64,000 bases of DNA. It comes from Minisyncoccota bacterium. GTDB taxonomy: Bacteria; Patescibacteriota; Minisyncoccia; Phycocordibacterales; UBA1006. Below are positions 17,579-35,721 of this stretch, piece by piece. A program made the position numbers and the translations under genes. Within the stretch, counting starts at the first letter, position 1, and each line of letters starts with the position of its first letter. The stretch covers positions 32,786 to 96,785 of the forward strand of contig JAIPIY010000002.1 in assembly GCA_021734445.1 (NCBI GenBank). The letters are read 5' to 3'. Below the pieces are notes generated by a model. The model saw only the letters and a program-made list of their open reading frames with translations, was not told the DNA's origin and did no database searches.

Positions 17579-18898
17579 TTAATAATCTCGAAGCTTTTTA
17601 ATCTTTTCATTATTACGGATTTTATCGTGCACTTTTGCTTCAATTTGACGAATACGTTCTCGAGTTACTCCAAATTCACGTCCGACTTCTTCTAATGTGT
17701 GATTTACCCCATCTAATAGACCATAACGCATTTCAATAATTTTGCGTTCCTTTATAGAAAGATCATTTAATATTTCATGAATTTGATCTGTTAAAATTCG
17801 CTTTGATGCATCCTGGTCTGGTCGTGGAATTTTATCATCTGCGATAAATTCACCCATAGTTGATTTTTCATCATCATCACGACCAACAGGTTCTTCCAAA
17901 GATAATGTATCTTGATTGATTTTTTCAATCATATGTATTTTATCTACTTCGATTCCCATCTCTGTTGCGATTTCTTCTGGCAATGGATCACGTCCTAGAT
18001 CCTGTGAAAGTCTGCGGGAAACTTGTTTATATTTTGAAATAGTTTCCACCATGTGTACAGGAATACGAATGGTTCGTGATTGATCAGCCAATGCACGAGT
18101 AATAGACTGTCGAATCCACCAGGTTGCATACGTTGAGAATTTAAATCCTTTGTTCCAGTCAAATTTTTCAACCGCTTTGAACAATCCAAGATTTCCTTCT
18201 TGAATCAAATCCAACAATGACAAATCAGAGCTACGTCCAACATATTTTTTTGCAATAGAAACAACTAGACGAAGATTCGCTTTTGCCAAAAGATTTTTAG
18301 CCTCATCATCTCCTGCTTCGATACGTTTCGCTAATTCTTTTTCCTGAGACGCTTTAATCAATGGATACTGTCCTATTTCACGCAGATAAATTTGAATAGA
18401 ATCTTGTCCTGTTCCCTCTTCTTTATTATATTTATTGTAATCAGAAGATTCTTCATCAAGACTGAGCAGATTTCCACCCTCTAACACATCAATACCTGCA
18501 ACAGAAAAACGTTCATAGAGATCATCCAAGAAAAGAACATCAGTCTCAACATCAGGAAATGCTTTCAATATTTCATCATAGGTAACAAAGCCTCGTTTTT
18601 TTGCTTTCTCAACCAACACATGAATACGAGCATTTCGCTCTTCAAGCATTTTTTCAAAAGCAAGACTGGTTTTTCGTATCGCAGGGGCTTTCTTTGCTGT
18701 TTTTTTCAAATCTTTTTTAACGACTTTCTTAACAGCCTTTTTGACCACCTTTTTAGGGCTCGCAGGTTTTTTTACTGCAACTTTTTTTGCTACTTTTTTT
18801 ACAGGTTTTTTAACGACTTTCTTAACAACTTTTTTTACTGCTTTCTTTGTTGTTTTTTTCATAACTTTTTTTATTGTTTTTTTCTTTGTTGTTGCCAT
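17579..18898 (-). CDS. rpoD: RNA polymerase sigma-70 (RpoD) with a lysine/alanine/valine-rich histone-H1-like N-terminal tail
   Basis: Regions 2-4 are intact ([32 protein letters not shown], the region 4 [22 protein letters not shown]). The first ~75 aa are [10 protein letters not shown]-type repeats replacing region 1.1. Confidence 0.95.
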
Positions 18899-18902
18899 AT
18901 GA

Positions 18903-20645
18903 TTATGATTCTTTTACGGTTGTTGCTTTTAATGTATTGATACGTTCGGCTAATAAGTGACACTGCGTGACCAGCGATTCGGGTATGGGTCCATGCTTTT
19001 CCGCATCACGCATTTGGGTAAGCGTTTTCGTAAATTCAACTTCGATGATATCCAGCTCTAATGCCAATAAAAATGCTTGTATGTCATCCAAAGCTAACGA
19101 AATTTTTTCTTCTGTATAGGTCATTTCTGCAAACATAAAAGAATCCGAAAGCACACTGGCTAGTTCTTGTTGTAGTGCATCAAACGCTCCTTTTTCTTCA
19201 ACTAATGCGTCATAGGCATCTTTATATTCTTTTGCCGTATCAGGCTGAAAACGTTCTAACCATAAGACTACACCCAAAAAACGTTTTTGCAAAGATATTC
19301 TTCGAGTTGGTGGTTGTTCTGGTGATTGCTGTGAGTCAGTTTTTATTGATTGGGGCACATAGGTTTTTTCCCATGATTGAATATCTTCACGGACCGCAGT
19401 GTCGGAAACCTCCAACACCCGTGCCAAATGTCGAAACGCTCTATCTTTTTCCAGCGCGCCGGCAAGAAATCGAATCAATGGATATACCAAATTACGAGCC
19501 TCTGTAAAACGTTTCTTTTCATCTGCAATAGATTCAAGGCTATTAATGACCACATCAATAAACCGAGGTGCAGTGTCTACAATAGTACGCCATTCTTGTG
19601 GATCTTTTTTTACAATATCCGCAGGGTCATTACCGGGTTCCAATACTACAACTTTTACATCACAGCCCTCTTCTAATGCTAACAAGATACTGCGATTCGA
19701 AGCTTTTTGACCGGCAGAATCCGAATCCAATGCAACGACAATAGTATCAGTGAATCGACGAATCAAAGCTATTTGATCTCGAGTCAAAGCAGTACCAGAT
19801 AACGCAACTGCAGAACGAACACCAGACTGATGTGACATCACCAAATCCATTTGCCCTTCTACTACAACACAGTGTTCATCAATACGCATAGCGTGTTTTG
19901 CTTCGTGGTATCCATATAATATTTTTGATTTATGATACAAAATATTTTCTGGAGAATTCACATATTTTGCATCTGCTTGTTTTGTATCGCTGCCGGGAAC
20001 TTCGATGAATCTTCCTGAAAAACCAACCACCCTACCTTGGGTATCCATAATAGGAAACATCACGCGAGAACGAAATCGATCATACCATCCACGATTACCC
20101 TGAATAACAAGTCCTACCTGATTCATTTCTTCATAAGTATATCCAGCCTTTTCAAGAACATGCGAAACGCTTTGCCATGGTGGCGGAGCGAAACCAATTC
20201 TGAATTTTTGTATGCTATCTTTTATCAATCCTCTTTCTCTGATGTAATGATATGCATCGGGATATTCTTTGAACTGTTGTTGAAAGAATATCGTTGCATG
20301 TTCCAATAATGCACGCAGGCGGTCATTTTCGATTACTGTTTTTTTATCAACTCCAGGAGAATATTTTTCTAATGTAATTCCAGCACGTTCAGCTAATTGT
20401 ACCAGAGCTTCTTTGAATGTTACTCCTTCGATATCCTGAATAAATTGGAATACATCTCCACCGCGATTACATCCAAAACAATGGTACGTATTACGCGCAG
20501 GTGAAACAAAAAATGATGCAGATTTTTCAGAATGAAATGGGCATCGCCCCTTCATATTTCCACCAACGGGATCTAATTTTACATACGAACCAACAACCTC
20601 GACAAGAGAAATTCGTTCTTTAATTGTATCAACAGGTGAAGACAT
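18903..20645 (-). CDS. dnaG: DNA primase DnaG
   Basis: Zinc ribbon [13 protein letters not shown]...HCFGC, TOPRIM ([19 protein letters not shown]), and a C-terminal helicase-interaction domain. A 4-nt gap separates it from rpoD. Confidence 0.95.
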
Positions 20646-20700: not shown

Positions 20701-23700
20701 CTATTTTCTTTCTTCTGTAGATGTAGCCTCATCAGGAAATTCAGAAACAGTAAATCCTGGAATAAAATCGTGCACCAAACCTGTACCTGCTGGAATAAGA
20801 TTACCCAAGATAACATTTTCTTTTAATCCTCGGAGAATATCTGTACCACCTTTTACTGCATTGGTAACTAATGTACGAGTAGTGTGTTGGAATGAAGATG
20901 ATGCTAACCAGCTTTTTGTAGAAAGAGATACTTCGGTAATACCCAAAATAACAGTATCTGCAGTCGCAAGAAGACCTCCTGCTTTTTTTACTGGCATATT
21001 TTCTTCTTCGAATTGAATACGTTCAATAATTTCTCCTGATGTAAGACTGGTATCTCCAGGATTTGATACTCGAACTCGAGAAAACATTTGACGAACAATA
21101 ATTTCAACGTGCTTACGTGAAATCGATGCACTGTGCAATTCATATACGCGCAAGATTTCTCGAATAACATATTCCTGAGCTTTTGATTCTCCTCCGTATT
21201 TGAATATATCAAGAACATTAGCAGAACCATCAGTTAATAAATCACCAGCAGAAACAGTGTCTCCTACATCCACCAATGGAACGCGTCGATAATCAACTGT
21301 ATATTCATGTGTTTTCTTTCCTTCTTTTGCTCCACCAGCTTCTTCGAGAACAGTAATAACAACTTCTTTGTCTTTTTTGATGACATCAGAAACAATACCA
21401 TCTACGGTTGCAACAACTGCAGGTGTTTTTGGAATACGTCGTTCTAATACTTCTTCAACACGAGGAAGACCGGTTGTGATATCCAATCCAGATACCCCAC
21501 CGGCGTGGAAGGTACGCAACGTAAGCTGAGTACCCGGTTCTCCAATCGCTTGTGCAGCGACAACCCCAACAGCTTCTCCAACTTTTACTGGTGCTTGTCG
21601 TCCCATATCCAATCCGTAACAGGTAGCACAAATACCATATAATGTTTTACATTTCAAAGGAGAACGAACTACTGCGCTTTCTATATCATTTGATTCGATA
21701 ACTGCAACATCGGCATTAGACAACAGGTGTCCTTTTGCAAATAATACAGTACCTTTTGCATCTGCAATCGGTTCAGCCAAAATACGACCCCATAGATTTT
21801 TTCCAAAAGGAATTTCTACTCCAGAAATAATCAATCGAGAAACAGTTACGCTTTCTTTGGTGCCACAGTCTTGTTCTGTAATAACAATTTCTTGTGCAAC
21901 ATCAACCAAACGTCGAGTAAGATACCCAGCCTTTGCAGTGTTCAACGCAGTGTCAGTCAACCCTTTTCGAGAACCGTGTGTAGTAGTAAAGTATTCAATA
22001 GGAGAAAGACCTTCTTTAAATGATGGCACCACAGGGAACTCGATAATACGTCCAGACGTGTTAATAATCAAACCTTTCATACCTGACATCTGTGCCATGG
22101 AATTGATAGAACCTCGGGCACCTGATGTTACCATGTCATAAGCAGATTCACGATCGATAAGGTGAGCCCCTACCAAAGTTTCAATTTCTTTTTTCGCAGA
22201 TTCCCAGATTTCAATAATTTTCCGATATCGTTCATCATCAGATAATAATCCGTCATCGTATTGAGAACGAATAGTAGATTCAGCAGATCGAGCTTTTTCA
22301 ATAATTGCAGGTTTTCCTTCGGGAACTTTGGCATCATCAAGACCCCAAGTTACCCCAGCTCGTGTTACATATTTGAATCCAAATTGTTTAATTTTATCAA
22401 GAAGCACAGGTGTTCCATCAATACCATATCGTTGAATCAAAAGATCAATCAATTTACTCAGATCTTTCTTTTTAATTTCCTGGTTCATGTAGTGATAATC
22501 ATCAGGAAATACACTGTTGAACAATAGTCGTCCCACAGTTGTTTCAAAAATATTACCTTCGAATGCTGCATATTTTTCTTTTGCTGTACCACGTACCATG
22601 ATTTTTGCTCGCAAATCTACCACAGTATAATCGTATGCCAAAATAGCAGCATTTGGAGATTCAAATATTTTTCCTTCACCCAATGCACCGGGTACTATTT
22701 TTGTCATCCAGTAACACCCCAACACGATATCTTGTGATGGAGTAGTAATAGGAACACCGTCTTGAGGTTTTACTAAGTTTTTATTAGATGCAATCAAAGC
22801 CTTTGCTTCTTGTTGTGCTTCGGTAGACAGCGGCACGTGTACCGCCATCTGGTCACCGTCAAAGTCCGCGTTAAACGCAGTACATACCAATGGATGTACC
22901 TGAATCGCATTTCCTTCTATCAATACAGGATTAAAAGCCTGAATAGACAAACGGTGCAATGTAGGAGCACGGTTCAACAAAACATATTTGTCTTTAATAA
23001 CTTCTTCCAAAATTGACCACACTTCTGGTGCACCTTCTTCGATCAAACGTCCAGCACCACGAATGTTAAAAGCCAATTCTTGATCAAGAATTTTACCAAT
23101 AATAAATGGTCGGAACAATTCCAAAGCCATGTGTTTTGGTAAACCACATTGGTTTAGTTTCAACTGAGGTCCAACAACGATTACAGAACGTCCAGAATAA
23201 TCCACACGTTTTCCAAGAAGGTTTTGTCGGAACAAACCTTGTTTTCCTTTTAAATTATCAGAAAGCGATTTCAATGTTCGACGTTGTGATTGACTCATTG
23301 CCTGAGATCCACCAGCACGACGAATTGAATTGTCGATCAATGCATCGACTGCTTCTTGGAGAATACGTTTTTCGTTTCGCAAAATTACGTCAGGTGCACC
23401 AATTTCTTTTAGTTTAGCCAAACGATTGTTTCGATTTATTACACGTCGGTACAAATCGTTAAGGTCAGATGTTGCATGTCGTCCACCATCCAATGCAACC
23501 ATAGGACGCAATGCGGGAGGGATAATAGGAATAGCTGTCAAAAACATCCATTCTGGACGAGCGTTTGATTTTATCAAAGATCGCACTAATGAAAGTCGTT
23601 TTTCAATTTTCAACTTTTCAGCAGTTTTTGTTTTTTCCAAATCAACAGTCAATTGTTTTTCCAAAGCAACAAGATCAAGTTTTTTGAACATTTCGTATAC

Positions 23701-24357
23701 TGCTTCAGCACCGATACCTGCATCAAACAATGATCCATATTTGATAGACATTTTATGATATTCAGCTTCGGTAAGAACAACACCTTCTGAAATAGCAGCG
23801 ATTTCTTTTTTCGTAGTAGACATTAATTCACGCATTTTTTCTTTGTCGTCTTCATTCAACAATGCTTTCATTTTTGATTTGAATTCATTGTCCAATTCTT
23901 TCAAAATACGATCACGTTCTACTTCGTACATGTTGGTAACAATATATCCAGCAAAATATACAACTTTTTCTAATTGCATTACCGGAACACCCAACAACAA
24001 ACTCATACGAGATGGAATACCTCGCAAAAACCAAATATGCGCAACAGGGCTGGCAAGATCAATGTGTCCCATTCGTTCTCGTCGCACTACTGATTTGGTA
24101 ACTTCAACTCCACATTTTTCACAAATAATACCTGCGTAACGAATACGCTTGTATTTTCCACAGTAACATTCATAATCTTTTTCTGGCCCAAAAATACGTT
24201 CGTCAAAAAGACCACCACGTTCTGACCGTCCTGTTCGATAGTTGATTGTTTCTGGTTTTGTAACTTCACCACGAGACCATTCTCGAATACGTTCTGGAGA
24301 AGCAAGTTTCAAAGAAATTGCATTAAATTCTTGTGTAGTATGTATAGACATAAGCAA
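20701..24357 (-). CDS. rpoC: DNA-directed RNA polymerase beta' subunit
   Basis: NADFDGDQMAVHVP catalytic motif, zinc-binding Cys clusters, bridge and trigger loop blocks. 1218 aa. Confidence 0.98.
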   Translation of the reverse strand: MLMSIHTTQEFNAISLKLASPERIREWSRGEVTKPETINYRTGRSERGGLFDERIFGPEKDYECYCGKYKRIRYAGIICEKCGVEVTKSVVRRERMGHIDLASPVAHIWFLRGIPSRMSLLLGVPVMQLEKVVYFAGYIVTNMYEVERDRILKELDNEFKSKMKALLNEDDKEKMRELMSTTKKEIAAISEGVVLTEAEYHKMSIKYGSLFDAGIGAEAVYEMFKKLDLVALEKQLTVDLEKTKTAEKLKIEKRLSLVRSLIKSNARPEWMFLTAIPIIPPALRPMVALDGGRHATSDLNDLYRRVINRNNRLAKLKEIGAPDVILRNEKRILQEAVDALIDNSIRRAGGSQAMSQSQRRTLKSLSDNLKGKQGLFRQNLLGKRVDYSGRSVIVVGPQLKLNQCGLPKHMALELFRPFIIGKILDQELAFNIRGAGRLIEEGAPEVWSILEEVIKDKYVLLNRAPTLHRLSIQAFNPVLIEGNAIQVHPLVCTAFNADFDGDQMAVHVPLSTEAQQEAKALIASNKNLVKPQDGVPITTPSQDIVLGCYWMTKIVPGALGEGKIFESPNAAILAYDYTVVDLRAKIMVRGTAKEKYAAFEGNIFETTVGRLLFNSVFPDDYHYMNQEIKKKDLSKLIDLLIQRYGIDGTPVLLDKIKQFGFKYVTRAGVTWGLDDAKVPEGKPAIIEKARSAESTIRSQYDDGLLSDDERYRKIIEIWESAKKEIETLVGAHLIDRESAYDMVTSGARGSINSMAQMSGMKGLIINTSGRIIEFPVVPSFKEGLSPIEYFTTTHGSRKGLTDTALNTAKAGYLTRRLVDVAQEIVITEQDCGTKESVTVSRLIISGVEIPFGKNLWGRILAEPIADAKGTVLFAKGHLLSNADVAVIESNDIESAVVRSPLKCKTLYGICATCYGLDMGRQAPVKVGEAVGVVAAQAIGEPGTQLTLRTFHAGGVSGLDITTGLPRVEEVLERRIPKTPAVVATVDGIVSDVIKKDKEVVITVLEEAGGAKEGKKTHEYTVDYRRVPLVDVGDTVSAGDLLTDGSANVLDIFKYGGESKAQEYVIREILRVYELHSASISRKHVEIIVRQMFSRVRVSNPGDTSLTSGEIIERIQFEEENMPVKKAGGLLATADTVILGITEVSLSTKSWLASSSFQHTTRTLVTNAVKGGTDILRGLKENVILGNLIPAGTGLVHDFIPGFTVSEFPDEATSTEERK

Positions 24358-24371
24358 GTGTAAAATTAAAA

Positions 24372-27300
24372 TTAATCGTTATTCAAGACTTCGACATTTG
24401 TTAATGAAACATCCAAAGACAAACCTCGTAGGTATGCCAACAAAACATTAAAGGATGCTGGTACGTGCGGATGTTGTACTGGTTGTCCCTTGATAAGACT
24501 ATCAAAAGCCTGTGATCGTCCTTGAATATCATCCGATTTAATCGTTAACATTTCACGCAATGTATATGCTGCGCCGTAACCTTCCAAAGCCCAGACTTCC
24601 ATCTCTCCGAAACGTTGTCCTCCACCTTGAGATTTTCCTCCCAATGGTTGCTGTGTAATAAGAGAGTAAGGCCCAACTGAACGCATGTGAATTTTGTCTT
24701 CCACCATGTGGTGAAGTTTCAATACATACATGTATCCAACCGCGATATCTTGTTCGAAAGATTCTCCGGTTCGACCATCATATAATTTCATTTTTCCTGA
24801 TTCATTGAATCCAGCTTTTTTCAATTCCTCTTGAATTTCTACAGAACTTGCTCCACCAAACGGAGGCACAATTGCCTGGTAATTCAATGTGTTTGCAGCT
24901 AATCCAAGGTGTAATTCCAGAATCTGCCCAAGGTTCATACGAGAAGGAACCCCCAATGGTGTCAAAATAACATCCACAGGTTCACCATCTTCTGTATATG
25001 GCATATCTTCTTCTGGGAGAATGGTTGAAATAACCCCCTTGTTTCCGTGTCGTCCAGCCAATTTATCTCCAACAGAAATATTTCTCACTTGAGCAACTTC
25101 GATATAGATTTTTTTCAAAATTCCAGATTCTAATTGATCCCCTCGTTCCCGAGAAAATACTTTTACTCCGATAACACGTCCTCGTTTTCCATGTTCCAAT
25201 CGCAATGAAGTATCTTTTACATCGCGAGCTTTTTCTCCAAAGATTGATCGTAGTAATCGTTCTTCTGGCGTAAGTTCTGTTTCTCCTTTTGGTGTAATTT
25301 TTCCAACAAGAATATCGTTTTCTCGAACTTCTGCACCTACGCGAACGATACCATCTTCGTCAAGATTTTTTAGTTTTGATTCCCCTACGTTTGGAATATC
25401 GTGTGTAGTTACTTCTTCTCCCAATTTTGTATCACGTACTACACATTCGTATTCTGCAACACGTACAGAAGAAAAGATGCTGTTTTTCACTAATCGTTGT
25501 GAAAGAATAATCGCATCTTCATAGTTTTGCCCATTCCAACACATAAACGCAACACGAACGTTTTGACCCAAAGCCAATTGCCCCTTGTCTGTTGATGATG
25601 AATCTGCGATAGCATCACCTTTTTTAACTTTGTCACCCAATGACACGATAGGTCGTTGGTGAAACAATGAACTATTGTTTGTACGTGCAAAATTAATTAA
25701 TGCGTAGGTTGTATCTTTTCCTGATTTTGTACCCTTGATAACAATTCGTGCACCGTCAACGGTAATAACTTCACCATCTTCTTTTGCAATAACAACACGT
25801 CCAGTATCTCGGGCAGCTTGTTCTTCCATACCCGTTGCAACAATCGGAGCCTGAGGAATCAGACACGGTGTTGCTTGTTTTTGCATGTTTGAACCCATCA
25901 AGGCACGGTTCGCATCGTTGTGTTCCAAGAATGGAATACAACTGGTTGCGACAGACAAAGCCTGATTTGTTGCAATGTCGATAAAATCAACTTCTCCTGG
26001 AGTAACCATGTGTGGAGCTCCTTTGATACGTACCGCAACTTTTTCTGCTACGATTTTACCAGAAGCGTCATACGCAACTCCGGCATGAGCGACTGTATAT
26101 TTTTCTTCTTCTAATGCATTCAAATACACGATTTCATCAGTAACTTTTCCTTTTACTACTTTTGCGTACGGAGTTTCTAACATTCCATATTCGTTTGTAC
26201 GTGCATATACAGACATGTGCATGATCAAACCGATGTTTGGACCTTCAGGTGTGTGAATAGGACACAATCTACCATAGTGTGAAGGGTGAACGTCACGAAC
26301 TTCGAAACCTGCACGTTCACGGGTAAGACCGCCGGGACCAAGCGCAGATAAAATACGCAAGTGTTCGATTTCATCCAACGGATTTTCCTGGTGCATGAAC
26401 TGTGACAATTGGTTTGTCGCAAAGAATTCTTTGATACGAGCCTGCAACGGTCGTGGGTTTACAATGTTTACAGGTAATACAGTTTCTCCATCGATCGTAG
26501 ACATACGATCTTGGATATTTCGTTTCATCTGTGCCATACCAACACGTACTTTTTGTTGGAACAATTCTCCTACATATCGTACACGTCGTGAACCAAGATG
26601 ATCAATATCATCTTCTTTTGCACCAGGAGTATTATTCAAAGAAACCATTCGGTCGATAATCATCACCAAATCGTCCAATGACAAGATTTTATTTTCTAAT
26701 TCTTTTTCATCAAGACTTAGGTCAAAATATTTTTGAAAACGAAAACGCCCAACACGAGAAAGGTCGTATCGTTCTGGACTAAATACTGATTCGATAAATT
26801 CACGAGCGTTTTCAACAGTCGCTAATTCACCATCTCGTAATTTTTTATGCATTTCAAGGTATGCATCATCTGCTGTTTTTACAGAATCTTTTTCTAAACA
26901 AGCCTTGATTACCGCCTGAGTTTCAGGATTAGTAAACCGTGCAAGCATTTTTTCATTAGTAGTCAAACCGAAAACTCGCAATAATGAGGTAATATGGAAT
27001 TTTCGTTTTTTATCAATACGCACATGTATCAAATGATCCATGTCAGATTCAATTTCGATCCATGCACCTCGTGCAGGAATGATTTTTGCTCCGAAACGGA
27101 TTCCTTTTTTTGTTTCATCTGAAGTAAAGAATACTCCATAACTTCGTGCCAACTGAGCAACAACAACACGTTCAATACCATTGGTAATAAATGTACCATG
27201 AGGGGTCATCAATGGAACATCAGTTAGAAACATTTCTTGTTCTTTTGAACTACCAAGAGCTTTGTTGGTAAGACGAACACGCGCCTTTAAAGGAGCTTCA

Positions 27301-27575
27301 TAAGACAATTTATTTGCCTTTGCATAATATTCATCATGTTTTGCTTCGCCGACAGTAAGTTCAGTAAATTCTAGTTTGAATTTTTTTCCAGAATAATCTT
27401 CGATGGGAGAAAATTCCTTGAACACATCTGCGATACCATCACGCAAAAACCATTCATGTGATGCGACTTGATTCTCTACTAGGTTTGGTACCGGAACCAT
27501 TGGCTTTCGATATTTTGAAAAGAATTTCTTTTCAACAACTGCACTTTTTTTCTTTGACATACAATACAAAACCAA
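24372..27575 (-). CDS. rpoB: DNA-directed RNA polymerase beta subunit
   Basis: Conserved beta blocks (the rifampicin region, GDKLAGRHGNKG, and the C-terminal clamp). 1067 aa. A 14-nt gap separates it from rpoC. Confidence 0.98.
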   Translation of the reverse strand: MVLYCMSKKKSAVVEKKFFSKYRKPMVPVPNLVENQVASHEWFLRDGIADVFKEFSPIEDYSGKKFKLEFTELTVGEAKHDEYYAKANKLSYEAPLKARVRLTNKALGSSKEQEMFLTDVPLMTPHGTFITNGIERVVVAQLARSYGVFFTSDETKKGIRFGAKIIPARGAWIEIESDMDHLIHVRIDKKRKFHITSLLRVFGLTTNEKMLARFTNPETQAVIKACLEKDSVKTADDAYLEMHKKLRDGELATVENAREFIESVFSPERYDLSRVGRFRFQKYFDLSLDEKELENKILSLDDLVMIIDRMVSLNNTPGAKEDDIDHLGSRRVRYVGELFQQKVRVGMAQMKRNIQDRMSTIDGETVLPVNIVNPRPLQARIKEFFATNQLSQFMHQENPLDEIEHLRILSALGPGGLTRERAGFEVRDVHPSHYGRLCPIHTPEGPNIGLIMHMSVYARTNEYGMLETPYAKVVKGKVTDEIVYLNALEEEKYTVAHAGVAYDASGKIVAEKVAVRIKGAPHMVTPGEVDFIDIATNQALSVATSCIPFLEHNDANRALMGSNMQKQATPCLIPQAPIVATGMEEQAARDTGRVVIAKEDGEVITVDGARIVIKGTKSGKDTTYALINFARTNNSSLFHQRPIVSLGDKVKKGDAIADSSSTDKGQLALGQNVRVAFMCWNGQNYEDAIILSQRLVKNSIFSSVRVAEYECVVRDTKLGEEVTTHDIPNVGESKLKNLDEDGIVRVGAEVRENDILVGKITPKGETELTPEERLLRSIFGEKARDVKDTSLRLEHGKRGRVIGVKVFSRERGDQLESGILKKIYIEVAQVRNISVGDKLAGRHGNKGVISTILPEEDMPYTEDGEPVDVILTPLGVPSRMNLGQILELHLGLAANTLNYQAIVPPFGGASSVEIQEELKKAGFNESGKMKLYDGRTGESFEQDIAVGYMYVLKLHHMVEDKIHMRSVGPYSLITQQPLGGKSQGGGQRFGEMEVWALEGYGAAYTLREMLTIKSDDIQGRSQAFDSLIKGQPVQHPHVPASFNVLLAYLRGLSLDVSLTNVEVLNND

Positions 27576-27780
27576 CCCGATATGGGTGGCTATAATTACG
27601 TGACTACACGCTTGCTATGAATAAGAAACAAACCATGACCCGTGGTTTGTTTATGCACCGAAACAAAAAGAAGAATCGTTCTTACCGCAACACAATCATT
27701 TCTGTCTTTATGAAATACAGTATACAGAAAAACAACAAAAAGTCAATGTTACCAGGGATTTTTGATTTTTATATAAAAAA

Positions 27781-27816
27781 CCCGCCAGTACTGGTACTGA
27801 CGGGGAGCTTGCCAAG
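27781..27816 (-). terminator. Intrinsic terminator downstream of the repeat-helicase gene
   Basis: CCCGCCAGTAC-TG-GTACTGACGGGG hairpin (one mismatch) flanked by A/T runs, just 3' of the helicase stop on its strand. Confidence 0.55.
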
Positions 27817-27835
27817 CTCAATTTATGGCATGTCT

Positions 27836-29971
27836 TTATTTTTTCCTTTTACACAAATCTTTCAAGATAGCCACAAGATCAGGTGCGTAGTGTTCAGCTG
27901 TCCGTGGACCAATTAAGTATACTCTGAACCATTGCGGATGATCTTTGCGATATCCCTCGGCAAGATTCTTTATGAGTACAAACTTACCTTGTACATCACT
28001 AAACTTTGAAATCTGGTTAGCTGTATACCAACCTTCTGGAGCCCGGGATTTTAGAATGCATAGATCTTTGAGAATCGCTACAAGATCGGGTGCGTAGTGT
28101 TCCGTGAAATTTGATCCTGTTTTACCCATCTTAAACCAATCAGAGTGTTCCGCTCGATACTCTTCGGCAAGCTTTTTGATTCGCACACTATGACTCAGTA
28201 CATCACCCATTTTTGAAATCTGGTTAGCTGTATACCAACCTTCAGGGGAATCCTGCCGAACACGGGCCTCCTTCAATATGTCAACAAGATCAGGGGCGTA
28301 GTGCTCAGTAAAGTTATTACCTGAAAAATACATCCCGAACCAATCAGGATGATTAGATCGGTGGATTTCAGCAAGGTTTTTAATCAGCACATCGCCACTC
28401 CAAACATCATCCATTTGACCAATTTGACTAGCCGTCATCCACCCCTCAGGAGCTTGTTTTTTTCGAGCACATTGCTTTTTCAGAATAGCCACAAGATCAG
28501 GTGCGTAGTGTTCAGTCCAATTAGGGCCTGATAAGTACATCATAAACCATAAGGAACATCTGCTACGGTATATCTCAGCAAGAGCCTTAACCTGATCCAA
28601 TTGACCTTGAACATCATCCATTCGTGTGATCTGACTAGCTGTAAACCATCCTTCCGGAGCTCTTTCTCGAACATATTCATCGGTATATTCTTTCACAACT
28701 CTCATCACCTCTTCTTCTGTGACATGGACTGATTCAAGAATCTCATCACACAGTTCCTGTTCAATATCAGAAGTAGAGATAAGGCGCTTGCGCATTCCTT
28801 TCATTTCTCTTTCTCCTAATACTTTAGGCATCACCATAGAATTGCCTTCCAGAACCTGTGAATAGAAAACCTGATCTCTGCCTTCGAACATCAACTGCAC
28901 AACATATGCAATTTTGTCTGGCATCAATTTCCACAAGCGTGTTGCCCTACCTGCCCCCTGAGTCAAACCGACAAGCGATCCAACAGGATAAGCAAATATG
29001 ACTCCACAAACACCTTCATCATCGAAACCAGTTTTAGGAACATCAACGCCCACAAGAACTTCAAATTTGTTGTCCTTGAAGTCATCGAAAAGATCTCTTC
29101 GATCATCCCTTGACATGGCACCTTCGATCAGTCGTGCAGTGACACCTTGATAAACCAATTCTTCTACAAGATCGCGTCCTTGTTCCACCGTTAATGTAAA
29201 CATGACGAATCGGAGACCTTTTGGTTGAAACAATTTCTTGTACAAACGCGTAGCAGCAATGTTTCCACCTTGGCGGATAATATCGCTACTTATTCGTTCT
29301 GTGTATTCAGACGTTGCCTCACCTTGCAATCTTCCAGCGATCTTGATCTTGACCTTGCCGGTCATAAACTGAATACCTGAAAGCATCCCTACTTCAACGG
29401 CTTCGGAAACTGAAATTCTGTGAACTTCAAGCCCTAGCCATTCTTTGAGGTTTTTCTCGTCAGAATATTCAGGTGTGGCGGTAAAGCCAATGATGATGGC
29501 GTGCTGTTGTTCATCCACCTTTGCCCGTCTTACCGGGCCCAGCGCAAGATGAGCTTCATCAAGAAATATGACCGAATACTGTTTCAACTCGTCATTACTT
29601 AATTTAATGAAAGTTTGGTACATCATCACGGTCACATGTTGACCGTTGCTTTTCCAACCTCCACCACGAAGCCCAACAACAAGCCGTACCGCAAATTTTG
29701 TAAATTCATTCTTCATCTGCGAAAGCAGATCAATCTTTGGTACAAGAATCAAAATCTTGATATCTTGTGCTCCATTGATAATAGCATCAGCAATCGTGGC
29801 CTGAAGGAATGATTTACCTATTCCTGTTGGCCCTGAGATGTACATAGTACGGAATCCGTCTATGATAGCCTGGCGTATTTCGGTGTAGAACGTTTCTTGT
29901 CCTTTACGAAATACGTTGATAGGAACATACGAAAGTAAGTTCGCTACAATTAACATGAATCGATTTTCCAT
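27836..29971 (-). CDS. SF2 DEAH/ResIII-type helicase (aa 1-430) fused to four tandem ~69-aa C-terminal repeats of unknown family
   Basis: Motif I ISGPTGIGKS, motif II FLDEAH, motif III GFTATP, and a helicase-C block (GVDVPKTGFDDEGVCGVIFAYP, motif VI QGAGRATR). Then four repeats beginning APEGW(F/M/Y)TA(S/N)QI and ending TEHYAPDLV(A/D)ILK. Confidence 0.8.
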   Translation of the reverse strand: MENRFMLIVANLLSYVPINVFRKGQETFYTEIRQAIIDGFRTMYISGPTGIGKSFLQATIADAIINGAQDIKILILVPKIDLLSQMKNEFTKFAVRLVVGLRGGGWKSNGQHVTVMMYQTFIKLSNDELKQYSVIFLDEAHLALGPVRRAKVDEQQHAIIIGFTATPEYSDEKNLKEWLGLEVHRISVSEAVEVGMLSGIQFMTGKVKIKIAGRLQGEATSEYTERISSDIIRQGGNIAATRLYKKLFQPKGLRFVMFTLTVEQGRDLVEELVYQGVTARLIEGAMSRDDRRDLFDDFKDNKFEVLVGVDVPKTGFDDEGVCGVIFAYPVGSLVGLTQGAGRATRLWKLMPDKIAYVVQLMFEGRDQVFYSQVLEGNSMVMPKVLGEREMKGMRKRLISTSDIEQELCDEILESVHVTEEEVMRVVKEYTDEYVRERAPEGWFTASQITRMDDVQGQLDQVKALAEIYRSRCSLWFMMYLSGPNWTEHYAPDLVAILKKQCARKKQAPEGWMTASQIGQMDDVWSGDVLIKNLAEIHRSNHPDWFGMYFSGNNFTEHYAPDLVDILKEARVRQDSPEGWYTANQISKMGDVLSHSVRIKKLAEEYRAEHSDWFKMGKTGSNFTEHYAPDLVAILKDLCILKSRAPEGWYTANQISKFSDVQGKFVLIKNLAEGYRKDHPQWFRVYLIGPRTAEHYAPDLVAILKDLCKRKK
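27839..28663 (-). repeat. Four tandem ~207-bp coding repeats (28663-28454, 28453-28247, 28246-28043, 28042-27839)
   Basis: A recurring nucleotide core ACAAGATCAGGTGCGTAGTGTTCAG appears at ~27870, 28085, 28285 and 28490. Spurious antisense ORFs 27617-27916 and 28349-28531 both read ...FQNSHKIRCVVFS. Confidence 0.85.
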
Positions 29972-30124
29972 TGTATTAAACTTTCAACGAGCAGATCATT
30001 TGTTCACCGCTTGATATACAATATGTCATATTATATATCATCTGTCAATACATACACACACATGTAATTAAAATCCCTTGCTTTTTAAAAAAGATATGTT
30101 AATATAGATAAAAACGTTCAGCAC

Positions 30125-30418
30125 ATGATAGAAATGTTCATCCTGCTGTCAGTCGCATCCGCAGCTGACCTGCCCAGGATGATTCATCGCGATCATCCTG
30201 AAATTGTAGTTACGGTTCTTTCCATCAATGAGGCTCGACTGAAATATCCCCAAGGCAACGATTGTTGCATTTTGGTGGGATTAGTTGAATCTCCTATTAT
30301 TTTTCAAGAATATGGGAATATTGTTATTTTCTCCGACCAGCAACCCGAAGCTATTTGTGCCACGGGCTGGAAGGGAAATGTTCTCGAGCTGTTACGGTTG
30401 TCGCTGAGACCACCCTGA
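30125..30418 (+). CDS. Hypothetical small protein
   Basis: ATG start, an AT-rich promoter-like region upstream, and a convincing terminator downstream (30425-30462). Confidence 0.35.
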   Translation: MIEMFILLSVASAADLPRMIHRDHPEIVVTVLSINEARLKYPQGNDCCILVGLVESPIIFQEYGNIVIFSDQQPEAICATGWKGNVLELLRLSLRPP

Positions 30419-30424
30419 CGACTG

Positions 30425-30462
30425 GGCCATGAGGTTTTCGAACTTCATGGCCCCTCTTTTTT
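30425..30462 (+). terminator. Intrinsic terminator
   Basis: GGGCCATGAG...TTCATGGCCC stem followed by CTCTTTTTT. Confidence 0.6.
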
Positions 30463-30527
30463 ATATACAAAAAAATTCCCGCCATACGCTATTGCGCATG
30501 ACGGGTTATTCAATCAAACTGATTCAC

Positions 30528-31019
30528 TTAGTCTTTAAGACAATATACAGAATCGGGAACATCTTCCCAATATTGTTTTCTGGCTTCATTTTCTGGATCA
30601 GAACAAAGTTCTTCCAGTAATCGAAGTGACTCCTGTTTACCATCGGGCCTGAGGTGTTCCTCCTGAAAAAGAATCACTGTTTTCTTTTCCCTGATCTCAG
30701 GAACAAGAGATTCTAAATAGAAAAGCCTGCAAATCTTCTTTTTATTATGCTCTTTTATCTCCCAATAAAAAGAGCTTGAATCCATTGCAATAATTTCAGA
30801 CAAAAGAAGAATATCGACATACCCAATACTGGGATCTGGATCTTTTTTATCATGATCAAGGAAGGAGCCTGTGGGGTCTCCATAAAATTTATTCACAGTC
30901 CACATTGTATTCACTATTCCATTACGAGTCCTTGCAAAATTTCCAGATGGCACAGAACAAGCTTCCCATCCGATAGTCTGTTGATTAATTAGCTCAATCT
31001 TTTCTAGTAGATCTTTCAT
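30528..31019 (-). CDS. Hypothetical protein (163 aa)
   Basis: True ATG start at 31019-31017, divergent from the 31133 gene. No recognisable domain. Confidence 0.5.
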   Translation of the reverse strand: MKDLLEKIELINQQTIGWEACSVPSGNFARTRNGIVNTMWTVNKFYGDPTGSFLDHDKKDPDPSIGYVDILLLSEIIAMDSSSFYWEIKEHNKKKICRLFYLESLVPEIREKKTVILFQEEHLRPDGKQESLRLLEELCSDPENEARKQYWEDVPDSVYCLKD

Positions 31020-31132
31020 TGTGTAGGTGCGTTAGTTTAAATACACATTACAATAATGAAATTATATATGCAACCCTTGACAAAAAAAAAAGAAATTGTG
31101 TTAAATATAAAAGAACCAAAAAACAACTGCAC

Positions 31133-31462
31133 ATGAACACAATTGAACGCCCTTGCTTTACCGTCTGTGAAAATGGGTCTGACCATGGACACTTTATTAT
31201 TCCATCAATCCAAGGAATGAGCTTTCCAATCTATTGCAAAGAGCATGCTCTTTTGTGCTTGAATGGATTAATCCGAAATGAGATTGTCGATTCAGCATTC
31301 AAAACAGCGATCATGCAAGATATCAATACCTGCAATCTGCCAAACACGGAAACCCCAGAAGTACGCAGAAAAGCAAAGAAGATATCAGATATGATTTCTG
31401 TGATTCTGCGAGCAGCTCACGAGAAAAGCTCATTTGATGACAGGGGTATCTGCAAAAATTGA
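31133..31462 (+). CDS. Hypothetical Cys-rich small protein
   Basis: In-frame ATG (MNTIERPCFTVCENGSDHGHF...); the track ORF begins with TTG at 31019. Contains about 7 Cys. A terminator follows. Confidence 0.4.
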   Translation: MNTIERPCFTVCENGSDHGHFIIPSIQGMSFPIYCKEHALLCLNGLIRNEIVDSAFKTAIMQDINTCNLPNTETPEVRRKAKKISDMISVILRAAHEKSSFDDRGICKN

Positions 31463-31485
31463 CACACTGTCAGTTACCAAAGAAG

Positions 31486-31517
31486 CCCGAACCGTTATAC
31501 GGTTCGGGTGTTTTTTT
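31486..31517. terminator. Bidirectional intrinsic terminator
   Basis: CCCGAACCG-TTATA-CGGTTCGGG followed by a T7 run, with an A-rich tract on the other side. It is shared by the 31133 gene and the convergent trmD. Confidence 0.75.
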
Positions 31518-31519
31518 AT

Positions 31520-32197
31520 CTATTTCTCCCCTTTTCGCCAATTTTCTATTTTTTTATGATCACCAGATAATAATACTTTTGGGACCTTATAGTTTTTACC
31601 CTGCCAAGGTAAAATTTCTGGTCGTGTATACATTTCATGACTGGAAATACGATTTTCTTCGATTGATTCTTGTTTACCTAATACACCAGGAATTTGTCGC
31701 GCCATAACATCTATCATCACCATCGCAGCCAATTCCCCACCTGTCAGTATAAAATCCCCAATAGAAATTTCTGTAGCGCGTAATGCTTTTTTTACACGAC
31801 TGTCGATTCCCTCGTACCGCCCACAAATAATGATGATATCTTCCAAACCTTTTTTCGTAACCATCTTTTGTGCATAGGTATTGGTAAACATTTCACCACC
31901 CGCAGCGGTGATAAAAACCTTTGCGTTTTTCTTTTTTGACTGAATTTTTTTTACCGCTTCTAAAATAGGTTCGGCACGTAATATCATACCTGGACCACCT
32001 CCGTATGGTTTTTCATCCACCTGCGCAGAAATATTTCCATCTGGCCAAACTTTGCGATATTTACCACGAACAAAAGAACGCAATGGATAACACTTGATTG
32101 CAATTTTTTTATTTTTTATCGCGCGCCCTAAAATCGATTCATTAATATATGAATCGAACATCTCGGGAAATATGGTGATAATATGAAATGTAATCAT
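31520..32197 (-). CDS. trmD: tRNA (guanine37-N1)-methyltransferase TrmD
   Basis: MITFHIITIFPEMF N-terminus, SPOUT knot motifs (YGGGPGM, the AdoMet loop). 225 aa. Confidence 0.95.
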   Translation of the reverse strand: MITFHIITIFPEMFDSYINESILGRAIKNKKIAIKCYPLRSFVRGKYRKVWPDGNISAQVDEKPYGGGPGMILRAEPILEAVKKIQSKKKNAKVFITAAGGEMFTNTYAQKMVTKKGLEDIIIICGRYEGIDSRVKKALRATEISIGDFILTGGELAAMVMIDVMARQIPGVLGKQESIEENRISSHEMYTRPEILPWQGKNYKVPKVLLSGDHKKIENWRKGEK

Positions 32198-32248
32198 GTG
32201 TTGTGTATTATTTTCGTGATTGACTATTACCTGATATACTATACCTAT

Positions 32249-33328
32249 ATGGAAATTATAACAATTATTTTATTAGGTCTTGTAGTCGTTGCCGTTATCT
32301 ATCTTATTATAACACGCAATGCAAAACCACCAGAAGATACTACCGCATCGCAACTGATGATGCAACAACTCAATGAATTGATCCGCCGTCAGGACGATCT
32401 CAAAGAATCAGTAAATACAAAATTACATGAATCCAGCAAGGGTCTGTATGAATCATTAAAACATCAATCCAGTGAATCAATAAAAATTATTCGTGATGTA
32501 ACTGAACGATTAACCCAATTAGATGAAACCAATAAACAAGTTGTTTCATTTACCGACCAATTACAAAGTCTTCAAGACATTCTCAAAAATCCAAAACAAC
32601 GAGGAATACTAGGTGAATACTATTTGGAAACATTGTTGAAAAACACTTTACCTCCAGGTAGTTTTGAAATGCAGTACGCAATGGGAAAAGATGAAAATGG
32701 AAATGATTTAATTCCGGATGCCATTGTTCGTGTAAAAGACAAACTGATTCCTATTGATTCAAAATTCTCTTTGGAAAATTATAACCGTATCAGTGAAACC
32801 AGCGATCTGAAAGAAAAAGAACGTCTGGAAAAAATATTTGTAAATGATTTAAAAAATAGAATTACAGAAACTGCAAAATATATCCAACCAGCAAAAGGTA
32901 CTATGGAATTTGCATTTATGTTTATACCCCACGAAGCAATCTATTATGATCTACTAACCAATACTGTTGGCGCATTACGTGACGAAGAAGAAAGTCTTAT
33001 CCAACGGGCGGCATCAAAATACAAAGTCATTATTGTTTCCCCTACTTCGTTTTTGGCCTACTTACAAACAGTATTACAGGGATTAAAAGCATTACAAATC
33101 GAAGAACAGGCAGTCCACATTATCAAACGGGTTGGTGAGCTGGGTAAACATATGCAAACGTATGAAACGTATCATGCAAAAATGGGCAATGCATTGGGTA
33201 CCGTGGTAAACCACTGGAATGCATCTGCAAAAGAATTAAAAAAAGTGGACAAGGATGTTCTTCGTATCACAGGTGAAGCAATCAATATCGAACCGTTGTT
33301 ATTAGATAAACCAGACAGCGAAGAATAA
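32249..33328 (+). CDS. rmuC: DNA recombination protein RmuC
   Basis: N-terminal TM, coiled-coil, and the C-terminal RmuC domain with EFAFMFIPHEAIYYDLL and IIVSPTSFLAYLQTV blocks matching E. coli RmuC. ATG at 32249; the track ORF starts upstream at 32183. Confidence 0.85.
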   Translation: MEIITIILLGLVVVAVIYLIITRNAKPPEDTTASQLMMQQLNELIRRQDDLKESVNTKLHESSKGLYESLKHQSSESIKIIRDVTERLTQLDETNKQVVSFTDQLQSLQDILKNPKQRGILGEYYLETLLKNTLPPGSFEMQYAMGKDENGNDLIPDAIVRVKDKLIPIDSKFSLENYNRISETSDLKEKERLEKIFVNDLKNRITETAKYIQPAKGTMEFAFMFIPHEAIYYDLLTNTVGALRDEEESLIQRAASKYKVIIVSPTSFLAYLQTVLQGLKALQIEEQAVHIIKRVGELGKHMQTYETYHAKMGNALGTVVNHWNASAKELKKVDKDVLRITGEAINIEPLLLDKPDSEE

Positions 33329-34241: not shown

Positions 34242-34895
34242 TTAATAAATAAAAATGACCGACCCAGTTGCCAGGATCGGTCTTTGTGCAACTCTGCGAT
34301 TTTTTGCAATACGCACCGTTGCCAATTCAGGTGCAGGACTAAATACCCCAGAAATCGCTGAGTCGATAGATTCGACAAATGATTTCCACCATTTTTTAAC
34401 CTTACTGGTTTTGTGTGGTTTTGGGGTGCAGGAGGCAAAGTAGAAACCCAGAACTATAAACATATGTTCTAATTTCAACAAAATTGCCTTAATTACCATA
34501 AAAGATTTTTCTGGATGGGAAGTCTCTACGCCAATGGGCGCAAACACTACCCACAGAAAAAACATTGAGAACACAATCCTGAATAAAGACCACTTTATTG
34601 CTAAAAAATTTCCAAAATGGGGGTTATCCAAGCATACTTCCTCTATATATTTCATGATTTGCATCCAGCTAAAAACTATAGCTATCCAGGCTAGATCAAA
34701 TAAAGTACCAATGATTACGAAAAAATCTATCTCTTTTACCATACTCAAAGAAATTATTCTGGCCCAACCAAGCAAACATACCGACAACACGAAACAAATT
34801 CGCGCAATCGTGAAATTGTTAATCCCAAACCATTCTTGAAACCAATCAGAAACGTCTTGAAATTTATTCAGCAGAATCATGTCAATTGAATGCAT
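34242..34895 (-). CDS. Membrane protein, hypothetical
   Basis: 217 aa with several hydrophobic helices. No family recognised. Confidence 0.45.
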   Translation of the reverse strand: MHSIDMILLNKFQDVSDWFQEWFGINNFTIARICFVLSVCLLGWARIISLSMVKEIDFFVIIGTLFDLAWIAIVFSWMQIMKYIEEVCLDNPHFGNFLAIKWSLFRIVFSMFFLWVVFAPIGVETSHPEKSFMVIKAILLKLEHMFIVLGFYFASCTPKPHKTSKVKKWWKSFVESIDSAISGVFSPAPELATVRIAKNRRVAQRPILATGSVIFIY

Positions 34896-34969: not shown

Positions 34970-35224
34970 CTACCGTATTTTTTCCTCTTCTAACAGTTTC
35001 TTTTTCATTTCTGATCCTCCGCGATTATAATCCCCCACTGTTCCGTCGCTTTTTATCACCCGATGACATGACACAGTCAGGTCATAATTCTTTTTCATTA
35101 TGGAACCAACTGCACGTGCTGATCCGGGACTACCCGCCATATCTGCAACCTGTTTATAAGTCATGGTTTTTCCCTTTTTTATTTTTCTCACAATAGCTAA
35201 AACTTTTTTAGTGAATTCAGTCAT
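34970..35224 (-). CDS. MGMT-family DNA-binding domain protein (O6-alkylguanine transferase C-terminal domain only)
   Basis: KQVADMAGSPGSARAVGSIM...LTVSCHRVIKSDGTVGDYNRGG matches the methylated-DNA-protein-cysteine methyltransferase HTH and PCHRV active-site region. The ATG at 35224 avoids overlap with the upstream gene; the track start at 35260 is TTG. Confidence 0.7.
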   Translation of the reverse strand: MTEFTKKVLAIVRKIKKGKTMTYKQVADMAGSPGSARAVGSIMKKNYDLTVSCHRVIKSDGTVGDYNRGGSEMKKKLLEEEKIR

Positions 35225-35229
35225 ATGAA

Positions 35230-35721
35230 TTATAGGAAATCTTTTTCTTCTATTACACAAATAATAGATTTGCTTTTTGATCGATTTAAAACAACCACGG
35301 GTTTTGTAAATTTAACCCCCAATGGAAATAGTTTTTCTTTTGTATCTTTAATACTACTGCCGGTGGTAAATACATCATCGATAATACACACGATGTCTTT
35401 TTTATTTGGAATATATCCATCGATTACCTTTTTCGTACCGTGATCTTTTACCTTGTCACGCACTAATACCAACGGTAATTTCTTTTTGTATGCAACCAAT
35501 GATGTCAATGTAATCCCACCATATCCCGAACCAGCAATACAGGTTGCTTGTGATGGTACCAATGGTAACAATGCGCGAACAATATGTTGCAACAATTTTG
35601 GATCACCCAAAGACTTTTTAATATCACAATAATAATTCGAAGATTCACCATTTCGTAAGACAAAATCACCTTGTACAAATATTCCTTTTTCTTTTAACTT
35701 TTTCACCAAAGAGTTATTCAT
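35230..35721 (-). CDS. pyrE: Orotate phosphoribosyltransferase-like type I PRTase (short form)
   Basis: FVLRNGESSNYYCD, DKVKDHGTKK, and the PRPP-binding motif VCIIDDVFTTGSSI align with PyrE blocks. Confidence 0.6.
   Translation of the reverse strand: MNNSLVKKLKEKGIFVQGDFVLRNGESSNYYCDIKKSLGDPKLLQHIVRALLPLVPSQATCIAGSGYGGITLTSLVAYKKKLPLVLVRDKVKDHGTKKVIDGYIPNKKDIVCIIDDVFTTGSSIKDTKEKLFPLGVKFTKPVVVLNRSKSKSIICVIEEKDFL

Follow-up and report, generated by a model that had tools for sequence, protein, structure and literature searches.

A candidate DNA translocase with a tail of tandem winged helix-turn-helix repeats in a Minisyncoccota bacterium

The 64,000-nucleotide stretch of Minisyncoccota bacterium DNA analysed here (contig JAIPIY010000002.1, positions 32,786 to 96,785; hereafter the window) contains a complete gene for a protein of 711 amino acids (aa) in which a superfamily 2 (SF2) ATPase is followed by four tandem repeats. 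The product is identical to the NCBI entry 'MAG: DEAD/DEAH box helicase family protein [Candidatus Pacebacteria bacterium]' (MAG, metagenome-assembled genome). With moderate confidence, we read it as a stand-alone, accessory, ATP-driven DNA translocase that is restricted to the Candidate Phyla Radiation (CPR) and whose tail is formed by four winged helix-turn-helix (wHTH) domains of the MerR/excisionase-like type. The repeat combines a known fold with a sequence family of its own that is new, and its tandem-array architecture, on a motor of a known class, is unusual. A preliminary description of the locus had instead put forward the helicase, together with three small orphan open reading frames (ORFs) beside it, as an undescribed defence system.

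An SF2 motor followed by winged helix-turn-helix repeats

The motor carries motifs Q-like, I, Ia, II (DEAH), III and VI, with FRKGQ at aa 21-25, GPTGIGKS at 47-54, DEAH at 138-141, TATP at 164-167 and QGAGRATR at 338-345, and the Pfam models ResIII (77.2 bits, cut-off 22.5), DEAD (45.7 bits) and Helicase_C (38.9 bits) all scored above their gathering thresholds. The two RecA-like lobes, motifs I, II, III and VI and the ResIII/DEAD and Helicase_C matches place it in SF2, and the complete DEAH-type core that had been described before is thus confirmed motif by motif. The ratio of nonsynonymous to synonymous substitution rates (dN/dS) of the core was 0.13-0.18, compared with 0.03-0.045 for the housekeeping neighbours. 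Judged from its sequence, the motor has kept every catalytic motif, is under purifying selection and is orthologous to no known housekeeping helicase. The nearest solved structures by sequence are Hef, T4 UvsW, XPBII and RadD (E-values 1e-10 to 1e-4), and the nearest folds are those of motors tracking along double-stranded DNA, namely HsdR, SauUSI, RadD, Snf2 and XPB, with CSB and Mfd also among the structural matches. Scores against the models of these families remained far below their thresholds: the RadD equivalog of NCBIfam (NF053632) reached 39.8 bits against a cut-off of 720, with an alignment limited to aa 222-347, the XPB model of NCBIfam 18.8 bits against 610, and the hsdR model TIGR00348 25.2 bits against 284.55, and the PADLOC model mREase_IV matched at 1.6e-8.

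Scans of the 711-aa protein with Pfam, NCBIfam and PADLOC detected no nuclease or other effector domain. HsdR of type I restriction (PDB 3h1t, 2w00) and the type IV restriction ATPase SauUSI (7clg) possess a nuclease domain, whereas the window protein has no PD-(D/E)xK or PLD nuclease, and its anchor would be the built-in wHTH array. Furthermore, type I restriction relies on the partners HsdM and HsdS, neither of which accompanies the window helicase, its neighbours being orphans, rpoB and trmD. The zinc finger and SSB-binding C-terminus of RadD, the nuclease of Hef and the damage-recognition domain of XPB are likewise absent, and, in contrast to the window protein as modelled, RadD, T4 UvsW, archaeal Hef and XPB all lack tandem wHTH domains.

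The tail consists of four head-to-tail repeats of 68-69 aa, in agreement with the preliminary description, which are 55-60% identical to the first one, share 29 invariant columns and score 94-102 bits each against a profile of the repeat, and the DNA encoding them shows a parallel periodicity of 204-207 nucleotides (nt). This similarity is far beyond chance, and the profile search revealed no other copy of the repeat elsewhere in the window. Scans with Pfam, NCBIfam, PADLOC and PHROG assigned the window's repeat to no family, even unit by unit. When 62 units were scanned singly against Pfam, two weak hits to HTH_29 were obtained (best 7e-4) and the window's units matched nothing at E <= 10; the seven-unit array of a relative (P0015) reached HTH_29 with 29.7 bits (cut-off 28.1), as a summed score only. 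An AlphaFold2 (AF2) model of one unit built from 62 homologue units, a kind of analysis that the preliminary description had proposed for the tail, had a predicted local distance difference test (pLDDT) value of 92.8 and shows a short strand, a helix (residues 8-12), a second helix (21-32), a beta-hairpin (39-44/47-52) and a third helix (54-63). The predicted topology is thus strand-helix-turn-helix-hairpin (wing)-helix, with the HTH signature 'La....lg.s..ti', and the modelled unit is superposable on MerR/excisionase-like winged HTH domains, with their strand-HTH and beta-hairpin wing. The matches of the unit in BFVD were non-significant, yet of the same kinds (Cox, MerR-type, PrtN). From the model we conclude that the repeat is a MerR/excisionase-like wHTH, so that the earlier view of an unassignable repeat holds for the sequence families of Pfam, NCBIfam, PADLOC and PHROG and is superseded at the level of the predicted fold.

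The domains to which the repeat was compared include pSK1 Par, RacA, the N-terminal domain of P1 ParA, TnrA/GlnR and the phage proteins Xis, Cox and PrtN (Pfam HTH_17, MerR and HTH_29 class). The window's own units are without a significant sequence match to them, and the repeat is set apart by a conserved cap, APEGW, at its N-terminus, by the motif 'AE.YR..HPEWF', which prolongs helix 2, and by a helix 'EHYxP(D/E)LV' at its C-terminus. Moreover, whereas MerR/excisionase-like domains are single or dimeric, the repeat occurs solely in head-to-tail arrays of 3-15 units. We found no literature on either the repeat or the architecture. The consensus of 982 units (APEGW.T...La....lg.s..tikkiAe.YR..HPEWFk.Y...g...EHYsPELV.iI.) has conserved columns that are mostly hydrophobic or structural. 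Variability is highest in the putative DNA-facing elements, namely in helix 1, in the turn, in the initial turns of helix 2 and in the wing, and both helix 2 and the wing are enriched in lysine and arginine. These basic residues, together with the predicted fold and the enzymes to which the array is fused (helicase, SNF2 plus methyltransferase), suggest that the array binds DNA, and the multivalent nucleic-acid recognition module suspected earlier is still its best reading. Iteron-like tandem DNA repeats that might serve as targets of the array were not found.

Exchangeable tails, distribution and mobility of the family

Motors 55-58% identical to that of the window carry tails of 3-10 PEGW units, as the window's repeat is called here, of five or more INT_rpt units, or of 7-8 copies of a further repeat of about 73 aa. 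INT_rpt (PHINT_rpt, PF14882, integrase repeat unit), merely listed in the literature as a repeat without known structure, occupies the same C-terminal position in five or more tandem units on the motors of P0016 and P0017 (55-57% identical). These two relatives match the PF14882 profile at 1e-36 to 1e-39, and no match was found in the window protein. The INT_rpt unit has 53-55 aa and the motif ..LP..P...Y...W..W.DFLG, from which the PEGW unit differs (hhalign probability 9.7%), and it is presumably a functionally equivalent module to the PEGW array. The third, uncatalogued repeat, present in 7-8 copies on the motors of P0013, P0018 and P0019 (e.g. L016:7001-10078), has the consensus TEEEQLEEWKQALAKHGITSREELLKVGVKKFKKLDFGEYGKGRAFASKVLGKKVKKVTLETLEELADKLGW and no Pfam match. 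Among PEGW, INT_rpt and the 73-aa repeat, hhalign probabilities were just 1.5-28%, which indicates no relationship, and a common origin of the three was therefore rejected. Since the same motor is found with mutually unrelated PEGW, INT_rpt or 73-aa tails, the tail is, to all appearances, an exchangeable module on a conserved motor. Together with an N-terminal sigma-70 (see below), the alternative appendages of the motor are thus the PEGW array, the INT_rpt array, the 73-aa array and sigma-70. The number of PEGW copies also varies among near relatives, with four in the window, five in L003 and six in L002, and in P0006 units 1 and 3 are nearly identical, indicating a recent duplication.

A search of 1.84 billion representatives with the repeat profile, as had been recommended in the preliminary description, retrieved 550 proteins at E <= 1e-3 and 424 at E <= 1e-10, in which the arrays always comprise 3-15 units. 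Four architectures were observed. In the first, to which the window protein belongs, the array is preceded by an N-terminal SF2 helicase of 430-530 aa; in the second, the commonest, it is preceded by an N-terminal domain of about 245 aa; in the third, the array comes first and about 1000 aa comprising a SNF2 ATPase and a class I S-adenosylmethionine (SAM) methyltransferase follow; and in the fourth, the array stands on its own. The third architecture includes giants of 1500-1830 aa (P0036, P0054, P0086 and others, e.g. L018:1518-7013) with 6-12 N-terminal PEGW units, which weakly match the ZorD, DrmD and DpdE motors of PADLOC; a recombinase zinc-ribbon gene lies next to the giant of L018. The domain of about 245 aa had no match in Pfam, PADLOC or PDB. 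It shows the motifs ILPPDEGEI.TGSG.G, IPRT and NDEEGNATFV in P0032, P0045 and about 50 others (e.g. L019:9001-12216); the L019 protein is encoded between an HNH-like gene and lexA, and one member of this type carries the JGI name 'VapI'. All named members of the repeat family belong to the CPR (Pacebacteria, Nomurabacteria, Magasanikbacteria, Peregrinibacteria and 'Patescibacteria group'). What emerges is a new family of wHTH repeats with about 550 clusters and an apparent restriction to CPR/Patescibacteria, which is attached to DNA enzymes of three or more kinds, and the tandem arrays of 3-15 wHTH units, which are unusual, could represent a multivalent or modular DNA-addressing device.

The helicase gene is probably accessory and horizontally moved. 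Its GC content is 42.6%, compared with 37.0% for the window, and it forms the highest 2-kb stretch; the segment 28001-30418, which comprises the helicase and the 97-aa ORF next to it, has a GC content of 42-46% against 37%, the highest in the 64 kb. This excess suggests a foreign origin. Homology to the loci L001 and L002 starts about 15 nt 5' of the start codon and stops about 60 nt past the stop codon, at the terminator, and the repeats are just 50-75% identical between close relatives. Members of the helicase family are rare, with five loci in 185,579 species genomes (one genome per species, GTDB) and eight in a metagenome scan, counts from pattern-limited searches that give a loose bound. 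Some relatives lie next to an IS200-type transposase, and others inside a region resembling a mobile element with a serine recombinase, ImmA/IrrE, HNH and methyltransferases. GenBank phages contained UvsW-like helicases only (22-27% identity), none of them spanning the tail, and no member of the family turned up in IMG/VR, which was scanned with the helicase alignment, with a single repeat unit and with three degenerate patterns of the form EHYxP(D/E)LV; as neither data set yielded the helicase family or the repeat, a phage origin was rejected. An integrative element at this site was rejected as well, since the window offers no integrase, flanking direct repeat or nearby tRNA, and the interval 27000-32500 gave no Rfam hit. 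In L027, a 103-aa fragment (L027:1764-2075) matching the N-terminal ResIII part only lies 5 kb upstream of the intact copy and is probably the pseudogene remnant of a duplicate.

Proposed mechanism and alternative roles

In the mechanism that we propose, the array would be an exchangeable multivalent module that binds duplex DNA and thereby anchors or targets the enzyme, with the variable residues of helix 1, the turn, the start of the recognition helix and the wing determining the target of each unit. The anchored motor would then pump duplex DNA relative to its anchor, which could strip or remodel protein-DNA complexes or generate loops and torsion, by analogy with other anchored translocases such as HsdR, which is held by the methylase/specificity core of type I systems, and XPB in TFIIH. 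Several points weigh against this model. The net charge per unit averages only about +0.9 and is -6 in repeat 2 of the window; DNA binding by the array is deduced from structure, and wHTH domains may also bind RNA or proteins. In the full-length AF2 model (pLDDT 84.8), the arrangement of the motor relative to the array is uncertain (predicted template modelling score 0.60). Similarity to SF2 motors does not distinguish duplex translocation from strand separation, and the best sequence relatives, Hef and UvsW, act on branched DNA. Finally, the database searches were word-based or pattern-based with limited sensitivity, so the rarity of the family and its restriction to the CPR are lower-bound statements. 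The plausibility that we assign below to each individual role is a separate figure that partly overlaps with the architecture-level model and is not to be summed with our confidence in the latter.

The signs of rapid change and mobility bear on a role in genetic conflict, in which the protein alone would be a defence protein or an anti-defence or replication factor of a mobile element, its array recognising foreign DNA and its motor blocking or displacing the replication or transcription machinery of that DNA. We consider this role rather unlikely. It accords with the elevated dN/dS of the core relative to its neighbours and the low identity of the repeats among close relatives, with the 3-10 repeat copies and recent duplications as in P0006, with the atypical GC content and a relocated gene whose homology stops at its borders, with the transposase or recombinase-rich surroundings of some relatives, and with the occurrence of the repeat on SNF2-methyltransferase giants weakly matching ZorD and DrmD motors, one of which adjoins a recombinase fragment. 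However, the protein has no effector domain and no membership in a PADLOC system, the IMG/VR and GenBank phage scans were negative, the window offers no integrase, flanking repeat or tRNA target, and many of the loci are ordinary chromosomal neighbourhoods. Far less room is left for the proposal of the preliminary description that the helicase and the three small ORFs constitute a single undescribed anti-phage system between rpoB and trmD, which we regard as highly improbable. It is true that the four genes occupy a variable spot whose flanking genes show 97-98% conservation, where the small ORFs are 57-89% identical to those of L004 and two of them are replaced in L003, that the restriction motors HsdR and SauUSI are among the best structural matches, and that weak PADLOC motor matches exist (PbeA 3.8e-9, besides mREase_IV). 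However, the four genes alternate in strand and are followed by terminators of their own, the 163-aa and 109-aa ORFs are confined to one lineage, L003 has kept the helicase without both, and the helicases of L001 and L002 (82-90% core identity) reside in other contexts without any of the three ORFs. Homologues in L001, L002, L005/L008, L007/L020, L014, L015, L016, L027 and L028 have wholly different neighbours; phmmer comparison of the divergent upstream ORFs of eight loci gave matches within close relatives only, and no conserved partner gene stands next to the helicase among the loci compared. No nuclease or effector domain is present, and, as recognised earlier, no known defence partner can be identified, and none of the neighbours matches a PADLOC system. 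The PADLOC matches of the helicase itself concern generic motor segments only (HamB 1.7e-5 and DrmD 8e-3, in addition to PbeA), and the locus contains no HamA, DrmABC/methylase or ZorABC partner, in contrast to Hachiman (HamAB), DISARM, Nhi and Zorya (ZorD). The four-gene system is thus largely refuted by non-co-occurrence, and the gene neighbourhoods indicate that the locus is not a multi-gene defence island; the effort of defence-system discovery is better not spent on the three orphans, a false lead that is now removed.

The strongest contextual hint on the role of the protein comes from transcription. The rpoB-rpoC-dnaG-rpoD cluster of the window, like that of L003, is immediately preceded on its own strand by the helicase gene, and in L005, L008 and L022, where the core is 57% identical and the tail consists of INT_rpt units, the helicase gene closely follows rpoD of this cluster. 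This linkage in two lineages could reflect inherited synteny or a functional link. In addition, the MAG Co_bin.90 (contig JAUIMI010000002.1, L007:5035-7728, equal to L020:7153-9846) encodes an 897-aa protein in which the whole of sigma-70 (regions 1.2, 2, 3 and 4; aa 18-273) is fused to the helicase core and one 73-aa repeat, and a 95%-identical copy in an independent ENA assembly (P0190) has the same frame through the sigma-70/helicase junction, which shows that the fusion is real. A transcription-linked remodeller that works with RNA polymerase or sigma in the manner of RapA, Mfd or XPB, and is anchored near promoters by the wHTH array or the fused sigma-70, would fit these observations and the presence of XPB, CSB and Mfd among the structural matches, and yet we judge it unlikely. 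Most other loci are without rpo linkage, and linkage and fusion are therefore treated as a lead, not as a result. The fusion of Co_bin.90 sits in a region resembling a mobile element, where it is followed by the paralogous helicase P0029 and a large serine recombinase, with ImmA/IrrE plus HTH_3, HNH, two N6_N4 methyltransferases and an S24 peptidase, and its motif II reads DDVH (DDAH in P0190) rather than DEAH. Moreover, sigma-70 may be just another DNA-binding module, the rarity and rapid evolution of the family are not what one would expect of a core transcription factor, and SF2 motors in general resemble XPB, CSB and Mfd. The more far-reaching idea that the family is a CPR-specific, ATP-driven partner of RNA polymerase or sigma, a counterpart of XPB in TFIIH whose wHTH array is a programmable, unit-by-unit DNA address reused on SNF2-methyltransferases, is speculative and quite unlikely; if true, the array would hold the motor at particular sites, the hypervariable recognition-helix and wing residues would read DNA unit by unit and the arrays of 3-15 units would constitute a programmable address. 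Very unlikely, in turn, is an ordinary repair or recombination helicase that would correspond in function, despite its divergence, to RadD, UvsW or Hef and remodel forks and branched DNA, with a wHTH tail that only raises DNA affinity. Hef, T4 UvsW, XPBII and RadD are indeed the best solved sequence relatives, RadD is the top NCBIfam match, RmuC and an MGMT-like protein are encoded near the helicase in the window, and one repeat-bearing relative adjoins LexA. However, the RadD and XPB scores fall far under their thresholds, the gene is rare among CPR genomes, compositionally atypical and relocating, and the swapping of tails among unrelated repeats is atypical of housekeeping repair helicases.

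The stand-alone translocase with an exchangeable wHTH tail therefore remains our preferred reading. CPR bacteria are genome-reduced and cannot be grown alone, and one translocase motor with four alternative appendages, including sigma-70, provides a lead on how they handle DNA and transcription. The repeat family, the motor with swappable tails and the sigma-70 fusion merit follow-up.

Layout of the locus and neighbouring genes

The positions of the helicase gene, its parts and its neighbours are listed in Table 1. The order on the minus strand is helicase, rpoB, rpoC, dnaG and rpoD, and rpoB and trmD flank the four genes as previously described.

Table 1. Features of the helicase locus in window coordinates.
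Feature	Position	Strand	Remarks
SF2 ATPase gene with repeat tail, complete	27836..29971	-	ORF, 711 aa; 100% match to P0001
Motor region, aa 1-437	28661..29971	-	Two RecA-like lobes (aa ~21-350) and conserved C-terminal linker element (..ILESVHVTEEEV..)
Repeat 1, predicted winged HTH unit, aa 438-506	28454..28660	-	
Repeat 2, aa 507-574	28250..28453	-	
Repeat 3, aa 575-643	28043..28249	-	
Repeat 4, aa 644-711	27839..28042	-	
Intrinsic-terminator-like hairpin 3' of the helicase gene	27781..27804	-	Separates helicase from rpoB
Best sigma-70-like promoter match 5' of the helicase, in the divergent intergenic region	30020..30048	-	TTGACA-17-CATATT with TG; consensus match only
97-aa orphan ORF, divergent from helicase	30125..30418	+	Neighbour, not shown to be a partner
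163-aa orphan ORF (NCBI K9M36_01690)	30528..31019	-	Neighbour, not partner
109-aa Cys-containing orphan ORF (NCBI K9M36_01695)	31133..31462	+	Neighbour, not partner
rpoB	24372-27575	-	
rpoC	20701-24357	-	
dnaG	18903-20645	-	
rpoD	17579-18898	-	
trmD	31520-32197		Far side of the three small ORFs, followed by rmuC

The three small orphan genes reported in the preliminary description were found with terminators of their own, strong terminator-like hairpins with a T-run lying at 30424-30453, 30505-30478 and 31485-31509, and the region as a whole contains 13 terminator-like sites, compared with 3.2 +/- 1.8 in shuffled sequences. Since a separate strong hairpin with a T-run lies behind each of the four genes, the helicase and the three small ORFs represent, as far as such signals tell, four separate transcription units on alternating strands. 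The TTGACA around which the 163-aa and 109-aa ORFs had been said to diverge is located at 31078. The GC-rich hairpin at 31485-31509 has T-runs on both sides and apparently acts in both directions, terminating the 109-aa ORF as well as trmD, which converge on it.

In scans with Pfam, NCBIfam, PADLOC and PHROG, the three small ORFs yielded noise only (best PADLOC match BrxF, 0.046). All three are present in L004, which is 86% identical at the nucleotide level. In L003, where rpoB, trmD and rmuC are 97-98% identical to those of the window, the helicase and the 97-aa ORF are kept and an unrelated 225-aa ORF replaces the other two, so that the co-occurrence of helicase and neighbours expected for a joint system was not borne out. 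The 97-aa ORF (66% identity, dN/dS 0.39-0.44) is conserved in L003 and L004 only; the 163-aa ORF has a dN/dS of 0.27 relative to L004, and the 109-aa ORF is 89% identical in L004 with a dN/dS of 0.125. Among 5.8 billion proteins, the 163-aa and 109-aa products fall into two clusters each, i.e. one besides their own. The three small ORFs are thus probably real, fast-evolving genes, and they are best explained as unrelated lineage-specific orphans in a variable spot between housekeeping genes.

Some minor features of the window may be added. An imperfect 12/24-nt tandem repeat (ACTTTTTTTACT...) at 18778-18884, on the minus strand within the 5' part of rpoD, presumably codes for a lysine-rich low-complexity N-terminal stretch. 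A PIF1-like helicase with a C-terminal HTH_40 is encoded at 11653-13332 (minus strand), and a 49%-identical homologue of it lies directly upstream of the repeat-tailed helicase in L014. At 34970-35260 (minus strand), a 96-aa protein consists of the MGMT DNA-binding/active-site domain alone (PF01035, 3.4e-28; motif ..SCHRVI..) and represents a minimal alkyltransferase or alkyltransferase-like protein. The gene for a predicted 217-aa membrane protein at 34242-34895 (minus strand) is a second fast-evolving gene of the same block, with 50-60% identity to its counterparts in L003 and L004 compared with 83-98% for its neighbours.

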